Source: Paracoccaceae bacterium (GTDB taxonomy: Bacteria; Pseudomonadota; Alphaproteobacteria; Rhodobacterales; Rhodobacteraceae). From it: a DNA stretch of 32,000 nucleotides. A program made the translations under genes and the position numbers. This document shows positions 538-27,151 of the stretch, in pieces (position 1 is the stretch's first letter; each line of letters opens with the position of its first letter). The notes beneath the pieces were generated by a model. It worked only from the letters and a program-made list of their open reading frames with translations. It made no database searches and was not told the origin of the DNA. The stretch spans positions 293,856 through 325,855 of the forward strand of contig CBDBBY010000001.1 in NCBI GenBank assembly GCA_965203215.1. The letters are read 5' to 3'.

Positions 538-3500
538 ATGACCAGCGAAATCAGCTTTTTTACACAGCCAATTATTAACTCACCCTACGAGTATCCCAGT
601 CGCCATTGGGAACTCGACGCGCAGGGGCAGCCGACAAACAGGTTTATCGACCGCAGACGCCGAGCGGAATTCGTGACACCTGTTCCAAAGCCGCAAAAAG
701 GCGCGTCAAACCAGATGGAATTTGAGTTCAAGGATTCCGCCAGAGTTTCTACTGAAAAGCAAAAGTATGATCCGATACCGATCATCAACGAACTGCGCGC
801 CCAAGTGGATCAATGGCGGGAGTTGCCGAACACGAGGGATTGGAACGTCACGCCGGAAACGGCGCGGTTACTCCAGCATTGGCGCAGTCATCGATACGGC
901 GGCATACGTCCATTTTTTTGCCAAGTTGAGGCTATCGAAACGCTTATTTGGTTGACCGAAGTTGCGCCTCGGTTCGGTCGGCGCGGCAAAGCGTTCTTGG
1001 ATCACTTGGACAAGGCGAACAGCGGCAGCGAACTTTCACGGCTGGCACTTAAACTTGCGACTGGTGCTGGCAAAACAACCGTGATGGCGATGATTGTTGC
1101 TTGGCAGACGATTAATGCGGTCCGCCATCCACAAGGCCGATACACCCGAGGTTTTCTCGTAGTCGCACCAGGCCTCACGATAAGAGATAGGCTACGGGTT
1201 CTGCAACCGAGCGATCCAGACAGCTATTTTCGAAACCGTCAGTTGGTTCCGACCGATTTGCTTGCAGACATAGATCGCGCCCGGATTGTCATCACCAACT
1301 ATCATGCATTCAAGCGACGCGAAACCCTTGAACTTTCCAAGGGGCTTTCCAAGGGCGGACGCGCACTGCTGCAAGGACGCAGCGATGATAGGATTCAATC
1401 ACTTGAAACCGACGGGCAAATGCTTCGGCGAGTGATACCTGAGTTGATGGGCATGAAGAACCTTATGGTTCTGAACGACGAAGCGCATCACTGCTACCGC
1501 GAGAAGCCGCAGGGTGACGAAGATTCACTTGTCGGGGACGAAAGGAAGGAAGCGGAGCGTAACCGAGAAGTGGCCCGAGTCTGGATGTCTGGTCTTGAAA
1601 CGGTCGCCGCAACGCTCGGCTTACGGCGGGTCGTTGACCTTTCAGCCACTCCCTTTTTCCTTCGTGGATCTGGCTACGTTGAAGGAACTCTCTTTCCGTG
1701 GACGATGAGCGACTTTTCGCTCATGGACGCTATAGAGTGTGGCATCGTCAAATTGCCTCGCGTTCCTGTCGCCGACAATGTTCCGGGCGGAGAAACCCCC
1801 ATGTTTCGGAACCTCTGGGACCGGATCGGCAGGAAGATGCCAAAGAAGGGACGTGTCAACGCTGGGCCACTTGATCCGCTTAGGATCCCGACGGAACTGC
1901 AGACCGCGCTTGAGGCGCTCTATGGACACTATGAAAAAACGTTCGAAAACTGGAGCGAAGCGGATGTCGAGGTTCCGCCGTGTTTCATCGTTGTGTGCAA
2001 CAACACCTCCACGTCAAAACTTATCTTCGACTACATTTCGGGTTGGAAGAACGAAAACGGGACCGTAAATCAAGGACGACTCGAGCTATTTCGTAACTTC
2101 GACGAAGTCGGCGATCCCCTTCCACGTCCGAACACGTTGCTCATCGACAGCAAACAACTCGAATCGGGCGAGACGTTGGATACAAAGTTCCGGGAGTTTG
2201 CCGCAGACGAGATCGAACGTTTTCGACGCGAGGTTGTCGTTCGAACCGGGGATCCTCGCAAGGCAGAAAACCTTACCGACGAGGAACTGCTTCGTGAGGC
2301 GATGAACACCGTCGGCAAAGCAGGGCAGCTGGGAGGATCAATCCGATGCGTCGTTTCGGTCTCAATGCTAACTGAAGGATGGGACGCAAACACGGTAACG
2401 CACATCCTGGGCGTCCGTGCATTCGGGACCCAGCTTCTTTGCGAGCAGGTGATCGGGCGGGCGTTGAGGCGCCAGTCTTACGATCTCAATGACAACGGAA
2501 GGTTCAACGCCGAGTATGCCGACGTGTTCGGCATTCCTTTCGACTTTACCGCGAAACCCGTGGTCGTTCCACCGCAACCGCCTCGCCAAACCACACATGT
2601 ACACGCGATCATACCTGATCGCGATGCCTGCGAAATTCGGTTTCCACGCGTCGAAGGTTACAGAGTTGAATTGTCGGATGATCGCCTATCTGCCGAATTC
2701 AATGAAGACTCAACTCTTGTATTGACTCCTGAGCTGACCGGGCCGGCAAAAACCGTAAACCAAGGCATCGTAGGAGAAGGAAGTGAACTGACATTAGCTC
2801 ACACAAAGGACGTCAGAAGCCAAGAGATCGTCTATGAGCTCACTAAGCGTTTGCTTGAAACGAAGTGGCATGACGAGGAAGGAGAACCGAAGCTTCACAT
2901 GTTCGGCCAGCTTAAGCGGATAACTCGGAAGTGGCTTGATTCTCATTTGGAATGCAAGGGCGGAACCTATCCGGCGCAGATCCTGTATCAAGAACTTAAG
3001 GAAATTGCCTGTGAACGCATTGCCCGCGGAATCATAAAGAAATCGAGAGAAGATGGGTTGATCAAAGTATTGCTGGATCCATTCAATCCCGTTGGGTCTA
3101 CAAGTGAAGTAAACTTCAGAACATCAAATGAACTTAAGTGGAGAACAAAACCTGCTCGCAGCCACGTAAACTTTGCGATATGCGACAGCACTTGGGAAAT
3201 AGAGTTCTGCCGTGTAGCTGAAGCGCATCCGCTCGTCCGTGCATATGTAAAGAACGACAACTTGGGGTTCGAAGTGCCTTATCATCTTGGATCGCAAACA
3301 CGGCGATACATACCCGACTTCATCGTTCTTGTTGACGATGGGCGCGGCAAGAATGACTTGTTGCATCTTGTCGTCGAGATAAAGGGCTACCGGGGCGAAG
3401 ATGCCAAGGAAAAGAAGGCAACTATGGAAACCTGTTGGGTGCCGGGCGTAAACCAACTCAATGCATACGGCCGGTGGGCATTCGCCGAGTTCTGCGACGT

Positions 3501-3612
3501 GCATAGCATGGAGGCAGAATTTGGTGCCAAGATCGAAAAAGAATTTCATAAGTTCGTCAAAAGCGCGACGCATCTTGGTGAGGCGGTTGCCAACGGAGCG
3601 GGAGCGGAATGA
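538..3612 (+). CDS. res: Type III restriction enzyme Res subunit (SF2 helicase/ATPase with C-terminal PD-(D/E)xK-like nuclease)
   Basis: 1024-aa ORF. Motifs: Walker A LATGAGKTTVMA, DEAH box LNDEAHHCY, late helicase motif SVSMLTEGWDANTVTHILGVRAF, and C-terminal nuclease-like PDFIVLV...LVVEIKGY. Its stop overlaps the mod start (ATGA at 3609-3612). Confidence 0.9.
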   Translation: MTSEISFFTQPIINSPYEYPSRHWELDAQGQPTNRFIDRRRRAEFVTPVPKPQKGASNQMEFEFKDSARVSTEKQKYDPIPIINELRAQVDQWRELPNTRDWNVTPETARLLQHWRSHRYGGIRPFFCQVEAIETLIWLTEVAPRFGRRGKAFLDHLDKANSGSELSRLALKLATGAGKTTVMAMIVAWQTINAVRHPQGRYTRGFLVVAPGLTIRDRLRVLQPSDPDSYFRNRQLVPTDLLADIDRARIVITNYHAFKRRETLELSKGLSKGGRALLQGRSDDRIQSLETDGQMLRRVIPELMGMKNLMVLNDEAHHCYREKPQGDEDSLVGDERKEAERNREVARVWMSGLETVAATLGLRRVVDLSATPFFLRGSGYVEGTLFPWTMSDFSLMDAIECGIVKLPRVPVADNVPGGETPMFRNLWDRIGRKMPKKGRVNAGPLDPLRIPTELQTALEALYGHYEKTFENWSEADVEVPPCFIVVCNNTSTSKLIFDYISGWKNENGTVNQGRLELFRNFDEVGDPLPRPNTLLIDSKQLESGETLDTKFREFAADEIERFRREVVVRTGDPRKAENLTDEELLREAMNTVGKAGQLGGSIRCVVSVSMLTEGWDANTVTHILGVRAFGTQLLCEQVIGRALRRQSYDLNDNGRFNAEYADVFGIPFDFTAKPVVVPPQPPRQTTHVHAIIPDRDACEIRFPRVEGYRVELSDDRLSAEFNEDSTLVLTPELTGPAKTVNQGIVGEGSELTLAHTKDVRSQEIVYELTKRLLETKWHDEEGEPKLHMFGQLKRITRKWLDSHLECKGGTYPAQILYQELKEIACERIARGIIKKSREDGLIKVLLDPFNPVGSTSEVNFRTSNELKWRTKPARSHVNFAICDSTWEIEFCRVAEAHPLVRAYVKNDNLGFEVPYHLGSQTRRYIPDFIVLVDDGRGKNDLLHLVVEIKGYRGEDAKEKKATMETCWVPGVNQLNAYGRWAFAEFCDVHSMEAEFGAKIEKEFHKFVKSATHLGEAVANGAGAE

Positions 3613-5624
3613 TGGCACGCAAAGCGCCAAAGCAAGTCGAGGCGTTGACCCACGAGGACGCATCACGAAAGAACATTCCTACTGCGGAATATCAGTCATT
3701 GATGGCGACGGATGATAGAGAACCGTTGGAAGTTGCCTACGAGCACTGCAATCGTGATTTGGATCCTCAGTTGGTTTGGCGTGGTAAGAACCCGAAGGAT
3801 TGGTCAGACCTAGTGGTTCAAGCACCGCCGTTGTTTATCCAAGAAAAGGTCCATCCCAAGGTATTGATCGACGACCTGATGAAGCGAGGAGACAATCAGT
3901 CGGACAGCGAGCCTTTGAATCTATTTTCGGATTTCAATGGGTTGCCGGACGAAAATGCTCGGACTGAATTCTATCGTCATGATGCCAACTGGACAAACCG
4001 AATGATTCTTGGAGACAGTCTGCAGGTAATGGCATCACTTGCAGAACGGGAGGGGCTGCGTGGCAAAGTTCAATGCATCTACGTCGACCCGCCATACGGA
4101 ATCAAGTTCAATTCAAACTTCCAGTGGTCCACCAAAAGCCGGGATGTAAAGGATGGCAAGGTCGATCACATTACTCGGGAACCAGAGCAGGTAAAGGCCT
4201 TTAGAGACACGTGGAAAGACGGAATTCACTCCTACTTGACGTACCTACGCGACCGATTGACGGTTGCAAGGGATCTGTTAACGGACAGTGGATCGATATT
4301 CGTACAAATTGGTGACGAGAATGTGCATCGAGTGCGGGTGTTGATGGACGAGGTTTTTGGTGCGGAGAATTTCGTTTGTAGCATTCCATTTGTCCGTACT
4401 ACGGGGCAAACTGCCAAGTATGTGAGTATAGTAAATGATTATATTCTTTTCTATTCCAAAGATTTGGAAAAATTAAAATATAGAAAACTATTTTCAAAAA
4501 AAGAACTGATAAAGACTCGATGGTTCAGATTTCCAAGCGGAGAAACAGCATCAGCAAGTAAAATTCAAAAAACAGAAGGCTTAAGCTCGTATAAGCCGGA
4601 CAATATAACTGCGCAGAGTGGCGGCAATACAACACGTTTTATCGTTAATTTTCGTGGACGTAAATTCGAACGAAACGTCGGTGGATGGAAAACAAATCAA
4701 GAAGGAATGAATCGTTTGATTCGATCTTGCCGTATTCACGAAGCAAGAAATAGTATTCAGTATATTCGACTTATGACCGATTTCGTATATCGAGAGATAA
4801 ATAATTTTTGGACAGATACAAGAACTGGAAATTTTACGGAGACCAAAACCTATGTTGTTCAAACAGCTCAGAAAATCGTCGAGCGCTGCATTCTGATGGC
4901 AACCGATCCTGGCGATCTCGTTCTCGATCCTACATGCGGTTCGGGGACTACCGCCTATGTTGCTGAACATTGGGGGCGTCGCTGGATCACCATCGATACT
5001 TCGCGCGTTGCCCTTGCTCTAACTCGCGCTCGTGTCATGGGCGCTCGCTATCCGTATTTTCTTCTGGCGGACAGTCCGGAAGGGCGCAAAAAGGAAGTCG
5101 AAGTTTATCGCGTGCCTTTTTCTGAATTCCCAACGCACGGTGACATTAGACAGGGCTTCGTGTATGAACGTGCGTCGCACATCACACTGAAATCAATTGC
5201 CAACAACGCCGAGATTGATGTGATCTGGGAGAAGTACCAGGGGAAGTTGGAACCTCTACGCAAACGTCTTAACCAAGAGACAGGAGAAAATTGGTCGGAA
5301 TGGGAAATTCCTCGTGAGCCCGATGAAGCATGGCCGGAAATAGCAACCGAATTGCACGAGAAATGGTGGGAACAACGCGTTGCTCGCCAACGAGAAATCG
5401 ACGCTTCTATTGCAGAGAAGGCCGATCACGAATACCTTTACGACAAACCGTACAGCGAAAGTAAAACTGTTCGGGTCGCAGGACCCTTCACCGTTGAGAG
5501 CATATCGCCGCATCGTGTTTTGTCGATCAATGAAAACGACGAGCCGATTGATCCGCAACGAAATCTACGCGAGAGTCACTGGAAAGGGAAACGACTTTGC
5601 GGAAACAATCATCGAACAACTTAG
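3609..5624 (+). CDS. mod: Type III-like Mod DNA methyltransferase, N-terminal ~650 aa with all catalytic motifs; the frame ends prematurely because of a frameshift
   Basis: 671-aa ORF. Motif IV DPPYG (4086-4100) precedes motif I DPTCGSGTT (4926-4952), the beta-class order typical of Mod subunits. An AT-rich putative target-recognition segment lies between them. The last ~20 codons (RNLRESHWKGKRLCGNNHRTT) look like out-of-frame read-through. Confidence 0.85.
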   Translation: MMARKAPKQVEALTHEDASRKNIPTAEYQSLMATDDREPLEVAYEHCNRDLDPQLVWRGKNPKDWSDLVVQAPPLFIQEKVHPKVLIDDLMKRGDNQSDSEPLNLFSDFNGLPDENARTEFYRHDANWTNRMILGDSLQVMASLAEREGLRGKVQCIYVDPPYGIKFNSNFQWSTKSRDVKDGKVDHITREPEQVKAFRDTWKDGIHSYLTYLRDRLTVARDLLTDSGSIFVQIGDENVHRVRVLMDEVFGAENFVCSIPFVRTTGQTAKYVSIVNDYILFYSKDLEKLKYRKLFSKKELIKTRWFRFPSGETASASKIQKTEGLSSYKPDNITAQSGGNTTRFIVNFRGRKFERNVGGWKTNQEGMNRLIRSCRIHEARNSIQYIRLMTDFVYREINNFWTDTRTGNFTETKTYVVQTAQKIVERCILMATDPGDLVLDPTCGSGTTAYVAEHWGRRWITIDTSRVALALTRARVMGARYPYFLLADSPEGRKKEVEVYRVPFSEFPTHGDIRQGFVYERASHITLKSIANNAEIDVIWEKYQGKLEPLRKRLNQETGENWSEWEIPREPDEAWPEIATELHEKWWEQRVARQREIDASIAEKADHEYLYDKPYSESKTVRVAGPFTVESISPHRVLSINENDEPIDPQRNLRESHWKGKRLCGNNHRTT

Positions 5625-6354
5625 GATGGCCGGAGTACAGCAAGCGCACAAGGAGGACAGGATCGCCTTGACTGCGCTGACACGATGGCCTGGAAAAATG
5701 ATCTGCGCCGAGGGCCGGTATTTTCAGAACGACCAAGAACGGCACGCAGCAATCTTCATCGGTCCAGAGTTCGGCACCGTATCTAGATCGGATCTTGTCG
5801 AGGCTGCCCGCGAGGCTGCAGATGCCAATTTCGACGTGCTGATCTCTTGCGCGTTCAATTACGACGCCCACTCCTCGGAGTTTAATAGCATAGGCAAGGT
5901 TCCAGTTCTTAAGGCCCGAATGAACGCCGATCTCCACATGGCGGAAGATCTCAAGAATACCGGAAAAGGGAATCTCTTCGTTATCTTTGGCGAACCGGAT
6001 ATAGACGTTTTGCCTGCGGACAGAGGAAGAATAAAGGTCAAGATCAATGGTGTGGACGTTTTCCATCCTAACTCAGGTGAGGTGCGGAGTCATGATTCGG
6101 ACGGGATAGCCTGTTGGTTTATTGACACAGATTACAATGAGGAGAGTTTCTTTGTTCGCCATGCGTATTTTCTAGGGGCAAACGACCCCTACAAGGCTCT
6201 CAAAACCACACTCAAAGCCGAAATCAACAAAGAAGCTTGGGAAACTCTGAACAGCGATGTTTCGTATCCATTCAACAAACCTGCTTCCGGTCGCATCGCG
6301 GTAAAGGTCATTAACCATCTCGGTGATGAAGTTATGAAAGTGTTCCGGGTATAA
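5557..6354 (+). pseudogene. mod: C-terminal ~265 codons of the same mod gene, displaced into the +1 frame
   Basis: ORF 5380..6354 is in frame +1 relative to 3609..5624. From about NEIYARVTGKGNDFAETIIEQLRMAGVQQAHKEDRIALTALTRWPG...VLKARMNADLHMAEDLKNTGKGNLFVIFGEPDI it reads like the conserved C-terminal domain of long (~900 aa) Mod-type methyltransferases that pair with ~1000-aa Res proteins (recognised from memory). There is no convincing RBS or start of its own at the junction. Confidence 0.7.
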
Positions 6355-6412
6355 AATTGAAGCGAAGTTGCGGTGGCGGCGCAAGACGCGCTACTTATAG
6401 CAGGATACTTGA

Positions 6413-6910
6413 TTACAGTGTGGGATTTCCCCATATTGTTTGTTGTAATTCATGATGCATACTAACGAAGGCAGCAGATTTCTTGACTTCGACAGTGTGG
6501 TTCGGTTTTTGCGCCGTTCCGGCTTGACGGACCCCCACGAGCAAGGGGATAACGGCTCTGGACTGCTTCGACATCGGATTCAGTGCTAATTTCAACTTCA
6601 CGGCACAAAAACACAAATTTCCCTTTTCAGGAACGCGATTTGTAGATTCCATTAGCTCGCAGAGCATTTGATGAATCGTTGGAGTCAGTTGAAATGGGGT
6701 GTGTGGAGGGCTCGAATCCGGTCCGAATTCGGCGAGTTCTGCCCCTTCCGGCGGAGGATGCCCAGTTTTAAGCGCAGCTTCGAGACCAAGCCCAGAGAGT
6801 AGTCCTAAACTGACGTCGCCTGCGATCCCGGCTTGCATAACCTGCGCGCCAAAAGAAATCACAACCTCGACTATATCGGAGCCAACTCGTAAACGCAGAA
6901 GTTGTTTCAT
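6413..6910 (-). CDS. Hypothetical 165-aa protein, translationally coupled to the upstream TPR gene
   Basis: It is the longest ORF in the region, and its ATG overlaps the TPR stop (ATGA, 6907-6910). The N-terminus has a Gly/Ala/Leu-rich hydrophobic stretch with glycine-zipper-like spacing (ISFGAQVMQAGIAGDVSLGLLSGLGLEAAL). A Pro-rich linker follows (GHPPPEG...SSPPHTPF), then a Cys-containing C-terminal half. I recognise no family. Confidence 0.5.
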   Translation of the reverse strand: MKQLLRLRVGSDIVEVVISFGAQVMQAGIAGDVSLGLLSGLGLEAALKTGHPPPEGAELAEFGPDSSPPHTPFQLTPTIHQMLCELMESTNRVPEKGNLCFCAVKLKLALNPMSKQSRAVIPLLVGVRQAGTAQKPNHTVEVKKSAAFVSMHHELQQTIWGNPTL

Positions 6911-8249: not shown

Positions 8250-9123
8250 GGGCCTGTCTACGCTAGAATTTTTGCTTGAGTTTTGCTTGGATCCATGCTT
8301 AAGTGACTGTCAACAATGACATAAAAATCGAGCGGTACACAGTCATGAAACAGATCACGGCAAAACAGTACGCCAAAATCCGCCCCTTCCTGCCGGTTCA
8401 GCGCGGGAACGTGCGGATTCCCAACATCGTATTTATCAACGCGGTCCTGTACGTTCTAGAGAACGGCTGCAAGTGGCGCGCGCTGCCGGAGCGCTTCGGA
8501 AAATGGTACACGGTCTACGCCCGGTTCCGCCGCTGGTCGCGCAGCGGCGTGCTCGAGCGGCTGTTCGCCGCGCTTCAGGAACTGCATGCGCCCGGCGGGG
8601 ACGCGGAGTGCTTCGGCCTCGACAGCACCAGCGTCAAGGTGCATCCCGACGGCACTGGAGCGCGGAAGACGAACGGGCCGCAAAGCATCGGCAAATCGCG
8701 CGGCGGATGGAACACGAAGATCCACATGATCTCCGCAAGTGACCGGCAGGCAATGATTTTTCGCCTGTCCGGCGGCCAGGCCAACGACGCGCCCGAAGGC
8801 CGCGCCCTGCTGAAGAGCTGGGCCGATCCGGTCGCGGGCGCGCCTCTGGCGATGGACCGCGCCTACGAGGGCGACGAGACCCGCCAGCTCGTCCGCGACC
8901 TTGGAATGACGCCGGTCGTGCCGCCGAAGGCGAACCGGAAAGTCAAATGGGAGTATGACCGGGAAACCTACAAGATGCGGAACGAGATCGAACGTCTGTT
9001 CCGGAGATTCAAGGGCTACCGGCGCCTCTTCACGCGGTTCGACAAGCTCGACGCGACCTATCGGGGCTTCCTGAACCTCGCCGCCGCCTTCGAAATGACG
9101 CATGATTTAGCATAGACAGGCCC
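8250..9123 (+). mobile_element. Complete IS5-family insertion sequence (~874 bp, IS427/IS1031-like size class)
   Basis: Terminal inverted repeats GGGCCTGTCTACGCTA (8250-8265) and TAGCATAGACAGGCCC (9108-9123) match at 15/16. Both ends sit in a palindromic CTAG (8247-8250 and 9123-9126), so the duplication may be TA, TAG or CTAG. A single transposase ORF lies inside. The GC content is visibly higher than in the flanks. Confidence 0.9.
8345..9115 (+). CDS. IS5-family DDE transposase
   Basis: ORF 8303..9115; the likely start is MKQITAKQY at 8345. Typical IS5-family signatures are present: N-terminal PNIVFINAVLYVLENGCKWRALPERFGKWYTVYARFRRW and C-terminal DRAYEGDETRQL...NEIERLFRRFKGYRRLFTRFDKL. 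Confidence 0.9.
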   Translation: MKQITAKQYAKIRPFLPVQRGNVRIPNIVFINAVLYVLENGCKWRALPERFGKWYTVYARFRRWSRSGVLERLFAALQELHAPGGDAECFGLDSTSVKVHPDGTGARKTNGPQSIGKSRGGWNTKIHMISASDRQAMIFRLSGGQANDAPEGRALLKSWADPVAGAPLAMDRAYEGDETRQLVRDLGMTPVVPPKANRKVKWEYDRETYKMRNEIERLFRRFKGYRRLFTRFDKLDATYRGFLNLAAAFEMTHDLA

Positions 9124-14480: not shown

Positions 14481-17400
14481 CTACAAGGTGAATGTCGAAG
14501 TTCGCTCCTGTCGTCGAGGATCTCCGGAATAGGTGGCTTTGAATACCGTCGCTGACAACCAATCCTTGAAAGACGGGTTGTCACTAAACTGCTTGAACAG
14601 TTCGGTGTGATCCGAGAGAAGCTCAATGACTGCACGCTCGAGTGCTCTGTCGTGCTCGACCCGCGCGTTGTCGCTGTCCGAATTGCGGATGGCGTTCTTG
14701 TAGGCCCGATCAGCCGAAACCTTATAGGGAAGTTCTTCCGCGATCACTTTGCCGATCTTGTCGGAGTCCTTCCAGTCAATATCACCAAACATCGAGTTGA
14801 ACTCTGCAAGTATGCTGCTCAGCGGGTCGGTATCTGGCTCCAGCGCCGTGACTTTGCTGCCAACCGGCACTGGACCAATCTCCGCATCAGAGTCATTGAG
14901 CGCAATCGACATTGAAGCTTGGGCTTCGACCCGATAACTATCCATGTCGATAGTCTCCAGAATACCCTTGCTAAGGTCTTCCTCTCGCGGAGCGGGTAGT
15001 TTGGGAGTCAGGAAACCCAAAAAGATCGATAGTTTCTCCCACTCGGGATTGCCGTAGGGGAGTAACGCAGCCAAGAAGCTGTACATGCGCATGAATGCCT
15101 TAGCCTTGCCCTTGAAGTCTACCTGTCCGTCTTCGTCAAGTTCCAAAAGATAGATTGCGACGCAATTGTCGAGGATCGGATCGAGTTCGTCCCGTGCTCG
15201 TCCGCCAAGATAGTGCGATGTGAGTGCTTCGATTTTTTCAGGAGAATAGACAGGGTAACCGTCAAGAGTCGCTTTCAGGTCGTGAAGTTTGTCCGGGTCA
15301 GTCTCCTCGCCGAGGATGGTCGTGCGGTAATAGTCATCAAACGCTTCAGTGATCATTTGCGCGTCGTTCGCAAAGTCGAGAACAAAAGTGTCGTACTTGT
15401 ATGGGTGGGCCCGGTTGAGTCGAGAAAGCGTCTGCACCGCCTTGATGCCGGATAGGACTTTATCGACGTACATTGTGTGCAAAAGCGGCTCGTCGTAGCC
15501 GGTCTGAAACTTGTCGGCGACAATCAGGAAGCGGTAAGGGTCCTCACGGATCTTCTTTTTAATATCGCTGCTCGGAAATCCATTGAGAGAAGCTTCGCTC
15601 ACGATCCTGCCGCCATATTCGTGCTCGCCCGAAAATGCGACTATCGGCTTCCATGGACTCCGGCGTTCCTTCAAGTAGTCCCCAAAAGCGCAAAAGTAAT
15701 CGATTGCCCGCCGAATGCCGCTGGTGGCTACCATAGCCCGCGCCTGCCCCTTGATCTTATATCTTGTCATTACCCGGTCGTGGAAATGGTCGATCATGAT
15801 TTCGGCCTTTTGGCGGATGGCATGTTCATGGGACTCGACGTAGCCCCGCAACTTCCGGAGCGCCTTATCTGTGTCGAATACGGGGTCGCCCTCAACTGTC
15901 TTGGTAAGCCGGTAGTAGCTCTTGATCGGAGTGTAGTTCTTCACAACGTCAAGTATAAAGCCTTCCTCGATAGCCTGTTTCATCGTATAGGCGTGAAAGG
16001 GCACATGGCGGATTTTGTCGCCCTCCGCCATTCTATTTCCAAATATTTCCAGCGTCTTGTTTTTGGGTGTGGCAGTGAACGCAAAATAGCTTGCGTTGGG
16101 CAGAATCCGACGTGCCTCAATCAGCCGATTGATCGTGTCTTCGATGCTGTCCTCATCTTCTGGAGTGGCGTCCGCCAACGCCATGTGCATTGTCGCCGTA
16201 GCTCGACCGCCTTGGCTCGAATGTGCCTCGTCTATGACAATAGCGAATCGACGCCCCCGATGCTCGTCTCCAATCTTGTCCAGAATGAATGGAAATTTTT
16301 GCACCGTCGTAATGATGATTTTCTTGCCACCCGAAAGAAACTCACGGAGCCTCTCGGATTGCTCAGCATGCCCCACTATGGACGACACCTGCGTGAACTG
16401 CTTGATGGTATCTTTGATCTGCTGATCAAGAACCCGTCGATCAGTTACCACAATGACTGAATCGAATATTGGCTTGCGATCAGTTTCCAAACCAATGAGT
16501 CGATGCACAAGCCAAGCAATGGAGTTGCTTTTTCCCGATCCCGCGGAATGTTGGATCAGGTACCGCTTACCCGCGCCGCACGACCCGGCGTCAGCTAAGA
16601 GCTTGCGTACGACCTCGAGTTGGTGGAATCGCGGGAAAATCTGTTTCCGAGATTTCCGGTGGCCTTGACCATTGTCTTCCACCACGATCTGGGCGTAGTT
16701 CTCAAGAATGTCGGTAAGCCCCGTTCTGGCCAGGACTTCCTTCCAGAGGTAATCGGTCTTGATGCCGATGGGGTTTGGTGGGTTACCCGCGCCGCCGTTC
16801 CAACCCTTGTTGAAGGGCAGAAACCAAGAGTCCTTTCCCCGCAAATGGGTGCACATCCGCACCTCGGAGTCATCTACCGCAAAATGAACGACGCAACGGC
16901 CGAACCGGAATAACATTTCTTTCGGATCGCGATCTCGTCGATACTGTGCAACGGCGTCCTCCACCGTCTGATTGGTAAAGCTGTTCTTGATCTCAAAGGT
17001 AGCAATCGGCAACCCGTTGACGAAGAGAGCTAGATCAAGAGCACGTCGAGGTTCTTTAAGCGAATAATGGAGTTGCCGCGTAACGCTGAAAATGTTCTCT
17101 GCAAACATCGCTTCCGACTTGGCATTACCGGGAGTCGGCTCCCCATAGAACAATTCTAATGAAGCTGGGCCGTGCTTCATGCCCTTGCGCAGCACATCTA
17201 TAGTACCACGTTTATCGATTTCATTTTTTAGCCGGCGCAGGAATTTGGAGCGTGAGGGTCCGTCCGTGCCAACTCCAAGTGCTTCGACAGCTTCCTGCTG
17301 CGTTTCGCTCAGGAACGCAAACAGCTTGGCGGTATCAATGGCATTTTCGCGGCTATAATCCTCAGAATAGCCAGCGACATAGCCACCTTCAGTGACAAGA

Positions 17401-17486
17401 GATTTGAAGATGAGCGCTTCAAAGCCACTCTCTCTGGTTTCCGTCGGCTTTGACGGTTTACCGCCGAGTGATGAATAGGCAATCAT
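14481..17486 (-). CDS. hsdR: Type I restriction endonuclease subunit R
   Basis: 1001-aa ORF. It has an N-terminal nuclease region (DLALFVNGLPIATFEIKN), Walker A HSAGSGKSNSIAW, DEAH-type VIDEAHSSQG and a late helicase motif (QTGYDEP). Its start overlaps the PIN stop (ATGA, 17483-17486). Confidence 0.92.
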   Translation of the reverse strand: MIAYSSLGGKPSKPTETRESGFEALIFKSLVTEGGYVAGYSEDYSRENAIDTAKLFAFLSETQQEAVEALGVGTDGPSRSKFLRRLKNEIDKRGTIDVLRKGMKHGPASLELFYGEPTPGNAKSEAMFAENIFSVTRQLHYSLKEPRRALDLALFVNGLPIATFEIKNSFTNQTVEDAVAQYRRDRDPKEMLFRFGRCVVHFAVDDSEVRMCTHLRGKDSWFLPFNKGWNGGAGNPPNPIGIKTDYLWKEVLARTGLTDILENYAQIVVEDNGQGHRKSRKQIFPRFHQLEVVRKLLADAGSCGAGKRYLIQHSAGSGKSNSIAWLVHRLIGLETDRKPIFDSVIVVTDRRVLDQQIKDTIKQFTQVSSIVGHAEQSERLREFLSGGKKIIITTVQKFPFILDKIGDEHRGRRFAIVIDEAHSSQGGRATATMHMALADATPEDEDSIEDTINRLIEARRILPNASYFAFTATPKNKTLEIFGNRMAEGDKIRHVPFHAYTMKQAIEEGFILDVVKNYTPIKSYYRLTKTVEGDPVFDTDKALRKLRGYVESHEHAIRQKAEIMIDHFHDRVMTRYKIKGQARAMVATSGIRRAIDYFCAFGDYLKERRSPWKPIVAFSGEHEYGGRIVSEASLNGFPSSDIKKKIREDPYRFLIVADKFQTGYDEPLLHTMYVDKVLSGIKAVQTLSRLNRAHPYKYDTFVLDFANDAQMITEAFDDYYRTTILGEETDPDKLHDLKATLDGYPVYSPEKIEALTSHYLGGRARDELDPILDNCVAIYLLELDEDGQVDFKGKAKAFMRMYSFLAALLPYGNPEWEKLSIFLGFLTPKLPAPREEDLSKGILETIDMDSYRVEAQASMSIALNDSDAEIGPVPVGSKVTALEPDTDPLSSILAEFNSMFGDIDWKDSDKIGKVIAEELPYKVSADRAYKNAIRNSDSDNARVEHDRALERAVIELLSDHTELFKQFSDNPSFKDWLSATVFKATYSGDPRRQERTSTFTL

Positions 17487-17914
17487 GGCTCATCTACTGG
17501 GTCGGCGAACGGATTGATCACGAAAATTCCACCATAATCCTGCGTGGCGCTCATGTCTTCGGAATACACCGCATCGCAGCACATAATGCGGGCGGCGGCA
17601 AGTATTGCGCTATCCCAATAAGACAACCTGAACCGTTGCATTATCGAAACTGCAGTATGAAACACTTCGAGCGTAACCGCCTGAACTGGAAAAGTAGATA
17701 GAGTCTTCAGAAATTCTTGGGCATCTTCGTGCGTGAGCCGCTCAGATTCGGGGCGGTGGAAGTGTGTCGCTTGATTGTAAAACTCCTGCAACACCTGCAC
17801 GGACAGCCCAAGGCCGGGCTTGCCCAAAAGCAACCTCGCGCGGCGGCGCTTTTGAGCATCTTTCGGCGAAGCGCTGACCGCATAGAGCAAGATATTGGTA
17901 TCAACTAGACGCAT
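17483..17914 (-). CDS. PIN-domain (VapC-like) ribonuclease, no cognate antitoxin ORF
   Basis: 143-aa ORF with the four acidic PIN signature positions in the usual order: MRLVDTNILLY, VLQEF, YWDSAILAAA, VYSEDM. It overlaps the hsdS stop by 14 nt and the hsdR start by 4 nt. Confidence 0.85.
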   Translation of the reverse strand: MRLVDTNILLYAVSASPKDAQKRRRARLLLGKPGLGLSVQVLQEFYNQATHFHRPESERLTHEDAQEFLKTLSTFPVQAVTLEVFHTAVSIMQRFRLSYWDSAILAAARIMCCDAVYSEDMSATQDYGGIFVINPFADPVDEP

Positions 17915-19349
17915 TGCGGCGATATAGTGCTTCCCGAGACAGGTTGTCTGCCATGTTCAACCCCACCCCTCGTGCGTCGAAATCCGCGAGCAACTGGCTT
18001 AACCTGCTATTTTGATTTTCGCTGTCCATTGCGAAATCAACTTGAACTTCGCGCACGTCCAGCTTGCCGGTGACAACGTCATTTGTCAGTCGCTCGTAGT
18101 ATTCGCGAACAAGCTTGATTTGACGTTGAGCACCATTGATCACGACTTGGATATCCGAAACAAAAGTATTAAGGTAATCAGAGATAGCACTCTGTTCGGA
18201 GAGCGGTGGCAGCGGGAACTCCATGTTTCCGATAAATTGCCATTCGGCTCGAGGCATCTTTGCGCCGTATGTCGACGCATTTATTGCATCAATTACCGAT
18301 TTTGTGCGAAGCCAGCTCTCAAGATAACTAGGTAAGAGATTATTCTCCTTCAAACGCAGTACAAGAAACTCTCCGGAGCAGACACCCACACGGTCAGGGC
18401 GCGTCGCCTTCGCCAAATATGGCCGGAGCTTACCGAAAAGCACATCGTTGTTCTGAAAGCGCTTTACTTGGCTTTCGAACTCCGTATCGAAATCAACGTT
18501 TAAGACCTCGCCCGTCCAGCTTTCGACATGTTCCAGCGCGATGTACACTTCTTCTGGACAACGCCCTGTTGCCACTTCGACAACATTTTTCACGCAAGAC
18601 TTCAGCCGTCGCACTTCCCAATGCGCTGGAACCTCAGGCATCCAGTCGATGCCTGTAGCCTTGAAAGTCGTGTTGGGATTAAGGCCGCGCATCACCGCTC
18701 TGTCTATGGTCGTTTGTCTCCCCTCGTTCAGTAGTGCGACCAGTCGCTCTTTGGCATCGACAAAAGACTCGACGTGGCTACCGACATGATCAAGAAATCG
18801 GGCTATAGCACTTTGTTCCGTGAGAGGAGGATACGGGAGTATTAGGTGCTTAAGTTGACTTCCATAGATGTGCATCACGGTAATTCCTCGACCCATGGTC
18901 GCTTTCTGTGCGGTCGATGAGGGGCAATCCATCACATATCCCATATAGCGGGCCACAATTTCACTATGGGGTCTGAACAGTATTATATCGCCACCGCAAC
19001 ATGCATTTGTTTCGATAAGGTTTACGGCCGACTTCCCAATATCGTCGATTGTTTCCCCCGATGCTGCAAAAAGAACGTCTCCAAAAAAAATAGGCGTATA
19101 ATTTTTCGAGGACTCTCTGCTCACAAAAGCCCGTGTTTTCTCTATAAAGAAAGAATGAGTTGTATATAAATCACCGTACCGTACGCAAGGAATTCCTTCT
19201 GAAGCTTCATCCTCCTTACTTCCTCCTCTACCTTTCGACAATTTTCCTAACTGACCTAGTTGCCGCACTTCCCAATGCGCAGGAATCTCGCCGATCCATC
19301 GCGAACCGCTGTCGTAATAGGTTCGGTAGGGCTTGATCACGGTTTTCAT
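17901..19349 (-). CDS. hsdS: Type I R-M specificity subunit with ~45-aa C-terminal extension
   Basis: 482-aa ORF. Each of its two variable TRDs is followed by a conserved helix: LPYPPLTEQSAIARFLD... and FPLPPLSEQSAISDYLN...VTGKLDVREV. An extra tail (VQVDFAMDSENQNSRLSQLLADFDARGVGLNMADNLSREALYRRNASS) overlaps the PIN start. Confidence 0.9.
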   Translation of the reverse strand: MKTVIKPYRTYYDSGSRWIGEIPAHWEVRQLGQLGKLSKGRGGSKEDEASEGIPCVRYGDLYTTHSFFIEKTRAFVSRESSKNYTPIFFGDVLFAASGETIDDIGKSAVNLIETNACCGGDIILFRPHSEIVARYMGYVMDCPSSTAQKATMGRGITVMHIYGSQLKHLILPYPPLTEQSAIARFLDHVGSHVESFVDAKERLVALLNEGRQTTIDRAVMRGLNPNTTFKATGIDWMPEVPAHWEVRRLKSCVKNVVEVATGRCPEEVYIALEHVESWTGEVLNVDFDTEFESQVKRFQNNDVLFGKLRPYLAKATRPDRVGVCSGEFLVLRLKENNLLPSYLESWLRTKSVIDAINASTYGAKMPRAEWQFIGNMEFPLPPLSEQSAISDYLNTFVSDIQVVINGAQRQIKLVREYYERLTNDVVTGKLDVREVQVDFAMDSENQNSRLSQLLADFDARGVGLNMADNLSREALYRRNASS

Positions 19350-21460
19350 TAGGTTTCAGCCATTAAGATGTTGTCAAGAATCCCTTCAGTTTCTCGCTCC
19401 AGTACCCTTAATTCGGCCTCGATTTCTTTGAGAGGGCGCAGAGGTTTAGGTTTGTAGAAGTGTTGGGTGAATGAAACTTCATAACCTACTTCCGTTTTCG
19501 AAGCATCGATCCAAGCGTCGGGTGCATAAGGCATTACCTCGCGCTGGAAAAACGACTTGATCCCGCCGTCTTCCAGAAGGGGAACCCGTTCAGTGTCACG
19601 TAATTCCGGATCCGGTTCGTAATCTGCAACATCTATTCTATTTGCGCCTGTCTTCGCCGAATTGCATCGTTTTATGTCGGCATTGGCTATTGCAGACATC
19701 TTGAGCACAGGTTTTGCCTTTGGGTCTCGCTTACCGAGTTCTCCTTTAATTAGCTTGCGACGCTTCGACGTCATGTGAAGGTGGCTGGTTGCTGCAGATT
19801 CGACAGTCTCCAGAAATCCGTTGAAGTCCATATGTGGTCCTGCGCCGAGCTTTTTTGCGATGCCTTCAACTAAGTCGGCAAGCCGATTTTCTGATTCGTC
19901 ACTACATATCTTTCGAAACCGTCGCAGGGTTTCGGAATCGAGATCGACACTGAGCCGTAACGGTCGCTCAATGGTTATCCTTTTATACCCAAACGCCTTA
20001 TTTGGGACAATTTTCGAATGCTCACTTTTTTCCAGCGTCATGAATGATGAACAGATGCGCTCGATATCGCCGTCGCCGAGCGCGCAATTCTTCCGCCCCA
20101 AATTCTTTTGTAAAGGCGTGAACCAGCCAGTGGAGTCGATGAGTTGAACCTTGCCGCGCCGTTCAAGTGGCTTGCGGTTGCTCAATACCCAGATATATGT
20201 CGCGATGCCTGTGTTGTAAAATATATTTGAGGGCAGGGCGACCACGGCTTCAAGGTAGTCGTTTTCAATTATCCAGCGTCGAATGTTGCTTTCGCCCGAG
20301 CCGGCACCGCCGGTGAACAGCGAAGATCCGTTATGAACTTCGGCAATTCTACTGCCAAGCGGCGATGAAACTTTCATTTTACTCAACATGTTGACAAGAA
20401 ACAACATTTGGCCGTCACTGGAACGCGTAACCAAGCTGTATTCTGGATCATCACCATGTTGAATCGTAAAGCGTGGATCTCTAATTCCCTTCTTGCCGCC
20501 GAGCCGCTCAAGATCCAGCTTCCAAGATTTGCCGTAGGGCGGGTTCGAAAGCATGAAATCGAATTCACGCGCCGGGAAGGCATCGGCAGATAGCGTCGAC
20601 CCGTGTGCTAGATTATCAGCCTCTGCGCCTTCGCCTTTGAGGATCAAATCGGCCTTTGCGATGGCCCAAGTTTCCGCATTCACCTCTTGGCCGAAGAGAT
20701 GGACTGATACCTCTTTGTTGCGCGCGGCCGCTAACTCTAGCAGGGTCTCCTCGGCCACTGTCAGCATGCCTCCGGTGCCGCACGCGCCGTCGTAGATAAG
20801 GTAAGTGCCTGATTCGACGGCGTTGGCGACCGGCATGAACACCAAGCGAGTCATGAGCGAGATAACGTCTCGCGGAGTGAAGTGCTCGCCAGCTTCTTCA
20901 TTGTTCTCTTCGCTGAAGCGCCGGATCAATTCCTCAAAGATTGTTCCCATCGAGTGGTTGTCGAGGCCCGGTAAACGAATGCTTCCATCCGGGTTAAGCA
21001 CCGGCTTAGGGGAAAGATTGATCAACGGATCAAGAAATTTTTCGATGAGAAATCCAAGCGCATCCGCCTCAACGAGCGTCGAAATCTGGTTGCGAAACTT
21101 GAATTGGTCCAAAACTTCCTGAACGTTGGGCGAAAATCCATCCAGATACGCCTTGAAATCTGATTTAAGAGCCTGTGGCTTGGAGCGGGATGCAAGGTCG
21201 CGAAGTCGAAATAGTGACGTGTTGTAAAACGCTTCACCGGAAGTCTGGCACAATGCAGCATGCTGATTCGTGATTTTTTCCTTGTCTAGCCGTTCGCGCA
21301 ATTCGGTTACGGCTGCTTTGGTCGGCTCTAGCGCCGCGTCGAGGCGACGAATCACCGTCATCGGCAGGATGACGTCCCTGTACTTGCCACGCACATAGAC
21401 ATCCCGCAATACGTCGTCGGCGATAGACCAGATGAAGTTGCTGATGTTCAATGCGCTCAT
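19349..21460 (-). CDS. hsdM: Type I R-M N6-adenine DNA methyltransferase subunit (long form)
   Basis: ORF 19349..21478. The second ATG at 21460 (MSALNISNFIWSIADD) has better SD spacing. Motifs: AdoMet motif YDGACGTGGM and catalytic LSNPPYG. The stop overlaps the hsdS start by 1 nt (TAATG). Confidence 0.9.
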   Translation of the reverse strand: MSALNISNFIWSIADDVLRDVYVRGKYRDVILPMTVIRRLDAALEPTKAAVTELRERLDKEKITNQHAALCQTSGEAFYNTSLFRLRDLASRSKPQALKSDFKAYLDGFSPNVQEVLDQFKFRNQISTLVEADALGFLIEKFLDPLINLSPKPVLNPDGSIRLPGLDNHSMGTIFEELIRRFSEENNEEAGEHFTPRDVISLMTRLVFMPVANAVESGTYLIYDGACGTGGMLTVAEETLLELAAARNKEVSVHLFGQEVNAETWAIAKADLILKGEGAEADNLAHGSTLSADAFPAREFDFMLSNPPYGKSWKLDLERLGGKKGIRDPRFTIQHGDDPEYSLVTRSSDGQMLFLVNMLSKMKVSSPLGSRIAEVHNGSSLFTGGAGSGESNIRRWIIENDYLEAVVALPSNIFYNTGIATYIWVLSNRKPLERRGKVQLIDSTGWFTPLQKNLGRKNCALGDGDIERICSSFMTLEKSEHSKIVPNKAFGYKRITIERPLRLSVDLDSETLRRFRKICSDESENRLADLVEGIAKKLGAGPHMDFNGFLETVESAATSHLHMTSKRRKLIKGELGKRDPKAKPVLKMSAIANADIKRCNSAKTGANRIDVADYEPDPELRDTERVPLLEDGGIKSFFQREVMPYAPDAWIDASKTEVGYEVSFTQHFYKPKPLRPLKEIEAELRVLERETEGILDNILMAET

Positions 21461-21743
21461 GCGTTTCCCTTTCTTCATGCCTCGGTTTCAGTTACTTTCC
21501 GAAAACCCAAATCCTTTCCAAACGGATTGCCTGACACGACAGATGCAGTCAACACGAAAGCCCTATAGAACGGATACCATTGTAATCGAATAAAGAACTT
21601 ATCTGATTAAACTCGCGCGTATCGTTATCTTGTGAATTAAGGGGCGTTTATACATCAAGCTCGGATGCTCCCGCTTCGCAAATGGTGCATCCAGACGGCG
21701 TGTCCACCCCAGGAAATGATCGCTTCCGTTCAAATGCAATTCG

Positions 21744-23155: not shown

Positions 23156-24076
23156 CTATGCTTCAGCACCGAATAATTCTCGCTGCAATCTTCCGAAAAG
23201 CTCAACCGTTGTGGAACTCAGGTATCCTGAGTAGTCGTCGCGCGCCAAGGTGGCGGCCACGACACTCTTCGGAAGAAAACGCTTGAGCTCTCCCCTGAAT
23301 TTGTCTGTCTTCACGATCTCGGGAATTCGCGGCAACGCAGTTCTCAATGCCGAATCGAAGTCGGAAATCGCATAATCCGCAATCTTTCTCTCAACGAGGT
23401 CGGAGCGAAGCGTGGCGTTCCGCTGATGCAGCCAAGCCAAGTCCCGGATATCGCGGTGGCGGATATGGGTAGCAAGGGCCATCGGGAAAGCGACAAGCTT
23501 GTCCGCCACGATTTCTTCCATTTTTTCCGCGCGCAGAAGGAGATTGTCATATCCGTAAGGGAGGAAATCGTAGTTCCGCCTCAGCGTGCGCAAATCAATT
23601 GTATGGGCTGGGACGTTGGCGACCTCGATCTTGATCCGCTGTCGTGGCAGATCCGGCCGTCCGGGTTTTGTGACGACGCTGACTTGCCACTTGTCGACGG
23701 AGACCATCGCCGATTCCGGGTCTCTCTTTCTGTCTTTCGGAGATTTGACCGTTGCCTTCAATCCGTATTTGCCATTGAGATGGTCCATCAGCGCTGAAGC
23801 GAGGTTTTTCAAATCGGCGGTGTCGAAATCTTTGCCCCCTGCGAAGTCGAGATCTTCGCTGAGTCGAGGTGCGCCGTAGCAAAGACGAAGGCAAGTTCCG
23901 CCGTGGAACACCAAGGATTTCAGACAGCCTTCCCGTTCCAGCGTAAAGAGTATATCGTAGTGCAACAACTCCTTCTCGACGACATGGCCGATTACTTGCA
24001 GACCCGGCCTTTCCATCGCACGCTCGACAAGTTCACCGAAGTTTAAGTCAGGCGTCGCGGACCGATCCCTCCTCAA
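23156..24076 (-). CDS. abiEii: AbiEii/AbiGii-family nucleotidyltransferase toxin (type IV TA, DUF1814)
   Basis: 306-aa ORF with the NTase signature LVFHGGTCLRLCYGAPRLSEDLDF. It lies directly downstream of, and overlaps, an AbiEi-type gene. Confidence 0.85.
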   Translation of the reverse strand: MRRDRSATPDLNFGELVERAMERPGLQVIGHVVEKELLHYDILFTLEREGCLKSLVFHGGTCLRLCYGAPRLSEDLDFAGGKDFDTADLKNLASALMDHLNGKYGLKATVKSPKDRKRDPESAMVSVDKWQVSVVTKPGRPDLPRQRIKIEVANVPAHTIDLRTLRRNYDFLPYGYDNLLLRAEKMEEIVADKLVAFPMALATHIRHRDIRDLAWLHQRNATLRSDLVERKIADYAISDFDSALRTALPRIPEIVKTDKFRGELKRFLPKSVVAATLARDDYSGYLSSTTVELFGRLQRELFGAEA

Positions 24077-24629
24077 TCAGAATCTCGTTGAGGTCTGATT
24101 CGGAAACCATATGCAAATTGCGTCCAACTCGCTTCAAGTCGCGATATGCAGTAGCCGCTGTAGCGAAGCGCAGTGGTCGATCGAAATCTCTCGTTCCGCG
24201 CAGAATGTCGCTAGCCTTGCGACTCGTGTGCGTGAACTCAATTGTGCCGTAGGGAGTCGTAATCTCCGCTTTCCGTCCAGTTGTCATGACAGTAATGCGG
24301 TCGATCAGAATCTGCGAGATTGCTCCATATTCCGAGAGTGCGCTTTCAAGACTGGTATAGTTGTAGCACCCGTGCCGAAATGCCACTGCGATCCGTTCGA
24401 TCAGGTAATCTCGCGGTTGCCGCGAAAAAGGGTTGAAGTAGACTCCGGTTGCAACGCGCTGAAGAAATCCGGCCCGAACGAGACGACGAAGACCTTCGGA
24501 AAAGGATTTCTCGTTTGACTCAGGAAAGATCTTCCGGAGATCGGAAGTCGTGAACAGGTCGTGTCCCCGCATATCCCATTCCAAGATAGTCTTTGCTGCC
24601 TCGATTGTTTTCATAGCATTTTTCTTCAT
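24048..24629 (-). CDS. abiEi: AbiEi-family antitoxin/transcriptional regulator
   Basis: 193-aa ORF; an alternative start is MKTIEAAK at 24614. The N-terminal winged-helix part (FTTSDLRKIFPESNEKSFSEGLRRLVRAGFLQRVATGVYF) is typical of AbiEi. The gene is paired with abiEii. Confidence 0.85.
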   Translation of the reverse strand: MKKNAMKTIEAAKTILEWDMRGHDLFTTSDLRKIFPESNEKSFSEGLRRLVRAGFLQRVATGVYFNPFSRQPRDYLIERIAVAFRHGCYNYTSLESALSEYGAISQILIDRITVMTTGRKAEITTPYGTIEFTHTSRKASDILRGTRDFDRPLRFATAATAYRDLKRVGRNLHMVSESDLNEILIEEGSVRDA

Positions 24630-26478: not shown

Positions 26479-26529
26479 ATGTTACAAAACCTATGATTAA
26501 TGATGAATTTATCTGATGTTTTGTAACAT
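26479..26529. promoter_or_regulatory. Perfect 12-bp inverted repeat (ATGTTACAAAAC-n27-GTTTTGTAACAT), candidate operator of the second abiEi
   Basis: The arms lie at 26479-26490 and 26518-26529, and the right arm overlaps both candidate start codons (26516, 26528). Two further short direct repeats occur upstream: GGTTCAG at 26443 and 26472, and TGAATTTAT at 26450 and 26503. Confidence 0.5.
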
Positions 26530-27151
26530 GCCGTCTGAGAAAGTCCCGACCCAACGAGATCGTCTGATTGACCATCTCACGCATCATGGGCTGGCGCGTG
26601 CCAACGAACTTGCGCGCAGTGGGGTTTCGGCGACAACTATTGCCCGCTCGTTGGCGAAAGGTGACATTGTCCGTGTGGGGCGCGGGCTTTATCAGCTTGC
26701 CGACGCAGAATTAGACGTCCATGGAACACTTGCCGAAGTTAGCAAACTGGCGCCGAAAGGCGTCATCTGTCTTGTTTCGGCGCTCGCCTTTCATGACCTT
26801 ACCGACCAGATACCTCGCCGGACTTGGATCGCGATCGGCACAAGTGATTGGGCTCCGAAGATCCGCCATCCGCCAATCCGCACGGTACGGTTTTGCGAAC
26901 GCTATTTCTCTGCAGCAAAGGAAACCCATAAAATTTGCGGTGTCGACGTGCCGATTTATTCGCCTGCCAAATCGATTGCAGACGCTTTCCGCAATCCGAA
27001 ACTCGTTGATAGGTCCGTAGCGATTGAATCCCTGAAATCAGCACTTTCGTATAGAAGAACGACCCCCGCTGCGGTGTTCCAGACGGCGCGTGAATTCGGT
27101 GCCGCGAATATAATCAAGCCTTATCTGGAGGCGCTGACAGCCAACGGCTAG
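26516..27151 (+). CDS. abiEi: AbiEi-family antitoxin/regulator, second and divergent copy, without intact toxin partner
   Basis: 211-aa ORF; an alternative start is MPSEKV at 26528. It has the N-terminal HTH ARANELARSGVSATTIARSLAKGDIVRVGRGLYQ, then the conserved middle VICLVSALAFHDLTDQIP and PVYSP-type motif (VPIYSPAKSIADAF). Confidence 0.8.
   Translation: MFCNMPSEKVPTQRDRLIDHLTHHGLARANELARSGVSATTIARSLAKGDIVRVGRGLYQLADAELDVHGTLAEVSKLAPKGVICLVSALAFHDLTDQIPRRTWIAIGTSDWAPKIRHPPIRTVRFCERYFSAAKETHKICGVDVPIYSPAKSIADAFRNPKLVDRSVAIESLKSALSYRRTTPAAVFQTAREFGAANIIKPYLEALTANG

Follow-up and report, generated by a model that had tools for sequence, protein, structure and literature searches.

In toxin-antitoxin (TA) systems of the RHH-VapB/VapC type, such as VapBC26, the N-terminal ribbon-helix-helix (RHH) domain of the antitoxin binds operator DNA, and its flexible C-terminus sterically blocks the active site of the VapC toxin (PMC5737657). 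PIN-like nucleases coupled to subunits of Type I restriction-modification (R-M) systems have also been described, in some cases with the antitoxin missing, and the same survey reported that such PIN/R-M arrangements are poorly conserved and that a direct interaction between TA and R-M components had yet to be shown (Matelska et al. 2017, NAR, PMC5499597). Other described systems that invite comparison are PrrC, the latent anticodon nuclease of the E. coli EcoprrI locus (PMC12707154), and PcrIIC1, a PIN-domain accessory protein of type II-C CRISPR-Cas9 that boosts Cas9 (PMC12669027). Here, we analyzed a 32,000-nucleotide stretch of a Paracoccaceae bacterium genome (GCA_965203215.1, contig CBDBBY010000001.1, positions 293,856 to 325,855; hereafter, the window), in which a PIN-domain gene sits inside a Type I R-M operon and had been called antitoxin-less in a first-pass annotation. 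We consider it likely that this locus is a VapBC module reshaped by deletion, in which the C-terminal tail of HsdS is the surviving part of VapB and would bind and block the PIN protein, with HsdS now acting as the antitoxin. The features on which this reading is built are as follows.

19349-21478, minus strand: hsdM, Type I methyltransferase subunit, 709 aa (Pfam HsdM_N and N6_Mtase; PADLOC MTase_I, 6e-242)
17901-19349, minus strand: hsdS, whole open reading frame (ORF), 482 aa (Pfam Methylase_S)
18021-19349, minus strand: hsdS proper, about residues 1-443, with two target recognition domains (TRDs) and the conserved helices (residues 5-437 covered by PADLOC Specificity_I models)
17904-18020, minus strand: VapB-derived tail in frame with HsdS, about residues 444-482 (hidden Markov model [HMM] of the antitoxin family, BLASTP, and pN/pS)
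17901-17914, minus strand: 14 nt shared by the 3' end of hsdS::vapB' and the 5' end of the PIN gene (direct sequence reading)
17483-17914, minus strand: predicted PIN-domain VapC toxin, 143 aa (Pfam PIN PF01850, 3e-10)
17483-17486, minus strand: ATGA shared by the PIN stop and hsdR start (direct sequence reading)
14481-17486, minus strand: hsdR, Type I restriction/translocase subunit, 1001 aa (Pfam HSDR_N, SWI2_SNF2/ResIII, and T1R_D3-like)

The tight coupling of hsdM, hsdS, the PIN gene, and hsdR proposed in the first-pass annotation was borne out by all three junctions, since in addition to the 14-nt and ATGA overlaps the hsdM stop and the hsdS start share one base (TAATG). Gene coordinates and Pfam assignments likewise agree on the position of the PIN gene between hsdS and hsdR. 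A promoter/terminator scan revealed no minus-strand terminator-like site inside the four genes and no promoter-like site at the hsdS 3' end. The Type I R-M set is complete according to Pfam and PADLOC, with HsdM, HsdS (two TRDs), and HsdR (nuclease and superfamily 2 motor) each present at full length.

Relatives of the PIN protein were collected from 80 genomic loci, mostly metagenome-assembled genomes (MAGs) of Chloroflexota, Latescibacterota, Acidobacteriota, Binatia, Gemmatimonadota, and Proteobacteria, and closer relatives from 9 metagenomic loci, for a total of 89 related loci, or 90 with the window. In almost every related locus, an ORF of about 95 aa lies directly upstream of the PIN gene. 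Its consensus reads MKNITVSVDEETHRLARIRAAELDTSVSALVRDYL...(variable linker)...LLDEVLEDIDARGVGLRMADNLPREELYDRDAAR, and its N-terminus matches Pfam RHH_1 and a FitA-like RHH. An HMM of 94 positions, built from the antitoxins of 69 loci, found a match adjoining the PIN gene in all 89 related loci, with the RHH part covered in 85, and vapB overlaps vapC by exactly 14 nt in 57 of the 89. By homology, we assign the window PIN to a canonical RHH-VapB/VapC type II TA family. The earlier view that it is something other than a classical type II TA toxin is not supported, given the conserved antitoxin next to its relatives, and neither is the idea that the hsdS/PIN overlap represents new wiring, the same overlap being found between vapB and vapC. 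In one related locus (L009), the antitoxin gene (5585-5914, plus strand) has a GAAGGAG Shine-Dalgarno sequence in front of it and ends 84 nt ahead of the PIN gene; its product has no RHH and is built from the C-terminal module repeated twice in tandem. This is an independent case of an RHH-less antitoxin in this VapB family, showing that the C-terminal module can stand alone without the RHH domain.

When the antitoxin HMM was run with filters off against the 744 open frames of at least 25 aa in the window, the sole match was the hsdS frame (E = 3.8e-12), with the next-best frame at E = 4.5. The last 41 HsdS residues, DSENQNSRLSQLLADFDARGVGLNMADNLSREALYRRNASS, gave 41.4 bits on their own (E = 6e-12) and aligned to the C-terminal part of the HMM, whereas the unfused orthologous HsdS of a related locus, L085, scored E = 96. 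BLASTP comparisons of the tail with antitoxin P0121 and the antitoxin of L084 yielded 41-47% identity. Because the HMM matches the tail and not the unfused HsdS, we identify the tail as the C-terminal, toxin-binding module of the family VapB, joined to HsdS in the same reading frame after loss of the RHH half. The 48-aa tail alone had no match in Pfam or NCBIfam, and its homology becomes visible only against the antitoxins of its own family. Native HsdS homologues carry variable C-terminal tails of 20-30 aa, so the HsdS C-terminus can be expected to tolerate extensions. The previous description of the tail as lying beyond the conserved end of HsdS was right about the extension itself, as HsdS profiles spanning the whole protein reach only to about residue 437 of 482, but not about its first 6-8 residues or so ('VQVDFAM'), which still look like native HsdS C-termini. 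The sequence up to 'VQVDFA' is native-HsdS-like and that from 'DSENQ' onward aligns to the antitoxin; the fusion junction lies at about residues 441-446, with an uncertainty of about three codons. The HsdS C-terminal helix and RHH helix 2 share the motif 'LVREY', but a microhomology junction at this motif was rejected given that the unfused L085 HsdS has this HsdS helix natively and that the tail alone yields the full HMM score.

No separate antitoxin gene accompanies this tail. The ORF list contains no further ORF of at least 30 aa on the minus strand between 17900 and 18120, and the antitoxin HMM detected neither an RHH domain nor a separate antitoxin ORF among the 744 window frames, in agreement with the first-pass annotation. 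Its term 'antitoxin-less' nevertheless no longer fits, as the VapB C-terminal module is present in the form of the HsdS tail. The window in fact keeps a type II TA trait, namely, a toxin-binding antitoxin segment directly upstream of the toxin and overlapping its start, except that here this segment is part of HsdS. We thus read the 14-nt hsdS/PIN overlap as the inherited vapB/vapC overlap.

The PIN protein itself has the hallmarks expected of the toxin in such a pair. More than 2,000 homologues were found, and the 33 that were aligned show no variation at D5, E44, D101, E119, and D120, confirming the VapC-like character noted previously. These acidic residues are all intact in at least eight variants of the window's lineage, within which the ratio of non-synonymous to synonymous substitution rates (dN/dS) of the PIN gene is 0.15-0.16. 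An AlphaFold2 model built from the 33-homologue alignment (mean predicted local distance difference test score [pLDDT], 91) displays the PIN (alpha/beta/alpha) fold and was matched by Foldseek to VapC chains at E values of 1e-6 to 1e-4. Its neighbours among solved structures include Klebsiella 7by2, Mycobacterium tuberculosis 7vwo and 5x3t (VapBC26, among the top ones), FitAB 2bsq, and PcrIIC1 8wmm. We therefore predict that the gene encodes a VapC-type toxin with a full set of acidic active-site residues, endowed with RNase activity and toxicity. Searches of the PIN protein against Pfam, NCBIfam, and PADLOC gave no PrrC/RloC-like hit (ABC-ATPase-like N-domain plus anticodon-nuclease C-domain), and its sequence places it outside the PrrC family. 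In the public ENA record of the window's genome, the PIN gene is annotated from an internal start as a 114-aa ORF (L094:4523-4867, corresponding to window 17483-17827, minus strand). This call loses the first catalytic Asp, has no Pfam match, and conceals both the PIN domain and the overlap with hsdS.

The fusion is kept in six lineage variants (the window, L081, L082, L090, L091, and L093), whose PIN proteins are 88-98% identical to that of the window, and it has survived exchanges of the HsdS TRD2 among certain members of this group. For the 32 tail codons outside the PIN overlap, the ratio of non-synonymous to synonymous polymorphism (pN/pS) was 0.08-0.36 among these six variants, and the most divergent pairs showed significantly fewer non-synonymous tail changes than the neutral expectation (binomial P of about 1e-3). 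The tail core ADFDARGV-LNMADNL-REALY-RNAS is invariant across the lineage variants. Taken together, these patterns indicate that the tail and the PIN protein are both under purifying selection.

Conservation among the variants also bears on whether the fusion exists in appearance only, with a small antitoxin peptide made separately from an internal start in the hsdS 3' end (e.g., M441, about 42 aa) or released by proteolysis. The window does have an in-frame Met ahead of the module ('FAMDSEN'), but this residue is replaced by Leu in L081 and by Pro in L090, while the sole conserved Met, M466, would yield a 17-aa peptide devoid of half of the module; moreover, neither a promoter-like site nor a separate ORF was found. 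A free peptide is hence extremely unlikely, and an internal start was rejected as its source because the Met is not conserved among lineage variants.

With the last 105 HsdS residues as query, phmmer was run exhaustively over 1.84 billion representative proteins and returned a single match covering both the helix and the tail, P0132 from L090. The other top hits were ordinary HsdS proteins aligned over the HsdS part only, with unrelated and mostly acidic tails. As the hits elsewhere lack it, the tail is not a common HsdS feature and was found only beside this PIN gene, which favours the first-pass annotation on this point. A scan of metagenome contigs with the 105-aa HsdS C-terminus found no relative, and a word-index protein search with the same query recovered 11 free antitoxins and missed the query's own HsdS cluster, which reflects a limit of the index. 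The HsdS::VapB' fusion was shown to be rare, monophyletic, and confined to one lineage among the representative proteins searched.

Two members of this lineage speak to the possibility that the tail is a neutral relic, i.e., a tolerated deletion scar without a role, the PIN protein being weak, inactive, or neutralised in trans by a paralogous VapB. In L090, which shares 93.7% nucleotide identity and the same pntAB flank with the window, hsdM and the 5' region of hsdS carry frameshifts, yet the PIN gene, hsdR, and a 246-aa ORF with the tail at its end are all open (3245-6741). In L093, hsdR is broken and the tail-bearing ORF and PIN gene are intact (1392-4549). The R-M genes of both loci look decayed, although assembly error is possible, and such decay is what a relic would lead one to expect. 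The family is also multi-copy in some genomes, with two loci in OY762251.1 (L006 and L007) and two PIN genes in L024. However, a scar without function is difficult to reconcile with purifying selection on both tail and PIN, with acidic residues that remain intact throughout the lineage variants examined, or with a tail ORF that stays open in L090 despite the frameshifted hsdS upstream, and we judge a neutral relic improbable.

Canonical relatives offer a view of how the fusion could have arisen. A neighbour-joining tree nests the fusion carriers as a clade next to two canonical loci, L083 and L084, which identifies the fusion as the derived state. The closest unfused relative, represented by L084/L085, encodes a PIN protein 69-71% identical, an HsdR 75% identical, and an HsdS 66% identical to those of the window, with the same TRDs. 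The unfused L085 HsdS maintains this 66% identity over residues 1-440 and has the native end '...VTGKLDVRESHVDVAPGG...'. The gene order in L084/L085 is hsdM-fic-hsdS-(reverse gene)-macro-vapB-vapC-hsdR, with a complete vapB and an HsdS without tail. The additional genes correspond to a Fic/Fic_N gene between hsdM and hsdS (L084:277-1476) and a Macro-domain gene directly upstream of vapB (L084:5130-5711), both present likewise in L085. In L051, hsdS is followed after a 55-nt gap by vapB (100 aa), vapC, and hsdR, the last junction being an ATGA overlap, and a coupling of PIN gene and hsdR as in the window is found in both L051 and L084. Because some loci read hsdS-vapB-vapC-hsdR, a deletion of about 250 bp in an L051-like ancestor, with end points near hsdS codon 443 and vapB codon 50-55, would explain the layout of the window. 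Such a deletion would join a VapB C-terminal module of about 37-40 aa in frame to the HsdS C-terminus, and would take out the RHH half responsible for DNA binding and dimerisation along with any promoter or operator located in the hsdS-vapB gap.

The association of this TA family with hsdR extends well beyond the fusion lineage. A vapB-vapC pair lies directly upstream of hsdR, and is often translationally coupled to it, in 28 of the 90 loci, including the window, in several phyla. In 27 of the 89 related loci, the start of an HsdR 60-75% identical to that of the window coincides with the PIN stop or lies close to it. The loci linked to hsdR do not group into a single clade but are spread over the PIN tree, and many come from sponge-associated MAGs. 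They include L001, L017, L020, L032, L033, L039, L046, L050-L052, L054, L055, L071, L074, L084-L087, and others, with the PIN gene at about 6001-6420. In L024, two paralogous PIN genes of the family (3733-4140 and 5998-6405) lie 2 kb apart upstream of one hsdR. RHH-VapB could act as a regulator of hsdR expression in vapBC-hsdR loci.

The linkage to hsdR might instead reflect a pro-restriction function, with the PIN protein serving as a nuclease or assembly partner of HsdR in the way that PcrIIC1 boosts Cas9; the conserved vapBC-hsdR operon would then mirror a PIN-HsdR partnership and not TA biology. Indeed, PcrIIC1 (PDB 8wmm chain G) is the best solved-structure match of the window PIN both by sequence (E = 1.8e-4, about 25% identity) and by fold, ahead of any VapC, and the translational coupling of the PIN gene with hsdR is conserved. 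Nonetheless, this similarity is weak, no hsdR is found nearby in 62 of the 90 family loci (about two-thirds), and the module has the full anatomy of a type II TA system. An accessory role in restriction is therefore very unlikely.

How the fused pair would operate can be outlined from the canonical systems. An intact PIN protein under purifying selection needs a neutraliser, and the tail, itself under selection, is the sole candidate in the window, from which we infer that the tail most likely neutralises the PIN protein in cis. The earlier suggestion that the tail masks the PIN protein gains support from its homology with the putative toxin-binding module of VapB. The tail would still bind the PIN protein and block its active site, tethering it to HsdS and hence to M2S1/R2M2S1 complexes, so that toxin and restriction enzyme are probably physically coupled. 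RHH-mediated autoregulation would be lost, and the PIN gene and hsdR would be expressed from the hsdMS transcript. A stop in HsdS synthesis or clipping of the tail would free a stable RNase and arrest the cell, which would make hsdS addictive through the tail/PIN pair, and release of the PIN protein at phage-induced shut-off could double as abortive infection.

Several points weigh against this scheme. The selection tests on the tail draw on small counts, with 9-15 substitutions in each pair, and on pairs that depend on one another. All carriers of the fusion belong to one lineage and occupy one chromosomal site, and persistence could partly mean that the tail cannot be lost as long as the PIN protein is active, without pointing to a new function. 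There is, moreover, one tail per HsdS for a PIN protein that is probably dimeric. Finally, a paralogous VapB encoded elsewhere in the genome could neutralise the PIN protein in trans.

A more elaborate version would make the HsdS-tethered PIN protein a PrrC-like guard, that is, a latent RNase freed upon perturbation of the R-M complex and leading to abortive infection. The trigger would be a phage anti-restriction factor (an Ocr/ArdA-type DNA mimic or Stp-like peptide) or restriction-alleviation proteolysis. The PIN gene does lie between hsdS and hsdR, the same place as prrC (PMC12707154), the fused tail would couple the nuclease physically to the R-M core, and the recurrent hsdR linkage of this VapBC subfamily across phyla points in the same direction. 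Yet the PIN protein has neither PrrC homology nor a PADLOC hit, and the same PIN in canonical loci answers to a free RHH antitoxin instead of the R-M complex. The fusion is also rare and derived, and the present data fit generic TA behaviour as well as they fit a specific anti-restriction sensor. A PrrC-like guard is thus unlikely. We assign a similarly low probability to the broader proposal of an abortive-infection guard built from TA parts, in which the VapC RNase would ride on the Type I complex until the complex is attacked or HsdS synthesis stops, and of which vapBC-hsdR operons would represent the non-covalent version. In such a guard, the HsdS::VapB' fusion would be a 'Rosetta stone' that ties the toxin functionally to the restriction enzyme.

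The Type I locus lies in a loose defence neighbourhood broken up by housekeeping genes (pntAB and acyl-CoA dehydrogenase). A second restriction system is encoded on the plus strand by a Type III-like res gene with ResIII helicase and endonuclease domains (538-3612) and by a DNA methylase gene (N6_N4_Mtase, 3609-5624) that it overlaps. On the minus strand, an AbiEii nucleotidyltransferase toxin (23156-24076) and an overlapping AbiEi antitoxin (24048-24629) form a type IV TA/abortive-infection pair, and a second, solitary AbiEi-like regulator is located at 26516-27151 (plus strand). Mobile elements cluster around the hsd locus of this lineage, with an IS4/IS5-family transposase in the window (8303-9115, plus strand) and IS1595 and IS5 transposases adjoining hsdM in the sister contig L090 (552-2925).

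If the proposed scheme is true, a TA module has been rewired such that a subunit of a defence system has turned into an antitoxin, making the Type I system addictive and possibly phage-sensing. The fusion predicts a complex between a VapC toxin and an R-M specificity subunit, which makes a physical TA-RM coupling directly testable. It also carries a lesson for annotation, as 'orphan' toxins beside defence genes merit a check for antitoxin remnants fused to their neighbours. Our literature searches, whose coverage was incomplete and does not prove absence, turned up no report of an HsdS protein carrying an antitoxin module.

Compared with the systems described to date, the locus shares with PcrIIC1, the nearest solved relative of the window PIN, the theme of a small PIN protein that associates, or in the window would associate, physically with a DNA-targeting immune effector, but the role described for PcrIIC1 is to enhance Cas9, not to act as a TA toxin. 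With PrrC it shares the placement of a nuclease gene, here a predicted latent RNase, between hsdS and hsdR, and the idea of masking by the R-M complex fits both. PrrC, however, is a large ABC-ATPase-like anticodon nuclease unrelated to the 143-aa PIN protein, has no antitoxin ancestry, and is masked non-covalently, without a fused peptide. The closest parallel is provided by RHH-type VapBC systems such as FitAB of Neisseria gonorrhoeae and VapBC26 of M. tuberculosis, which, like the window, have a PIN/VapC toxin with four acidic residues. Their antitoxin consists of an N-terminal RHH and a C-terminal toxin-blocking segment, and its stop overlaps the toxin start, as in the PIN family studied here. 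What sets the window apart is that the antitoxin gene is gone and its C-terminal module alone survives on HsdS, without a DNA-binding, autoregulatory domain and without a free labile antitoxin. While PIN and TA genes within Type I R-M operons were already known, what is new here is the antitoxin remnant on HsdS: unlike in the cases surveyed by Matelska et al., the 'missing' antitoxin can be traced to an HsdS fusion, a 40-residue peptide kept under purifying selection, in one VapBC subfamily that is recurrently coupled to hsdR across phyla.

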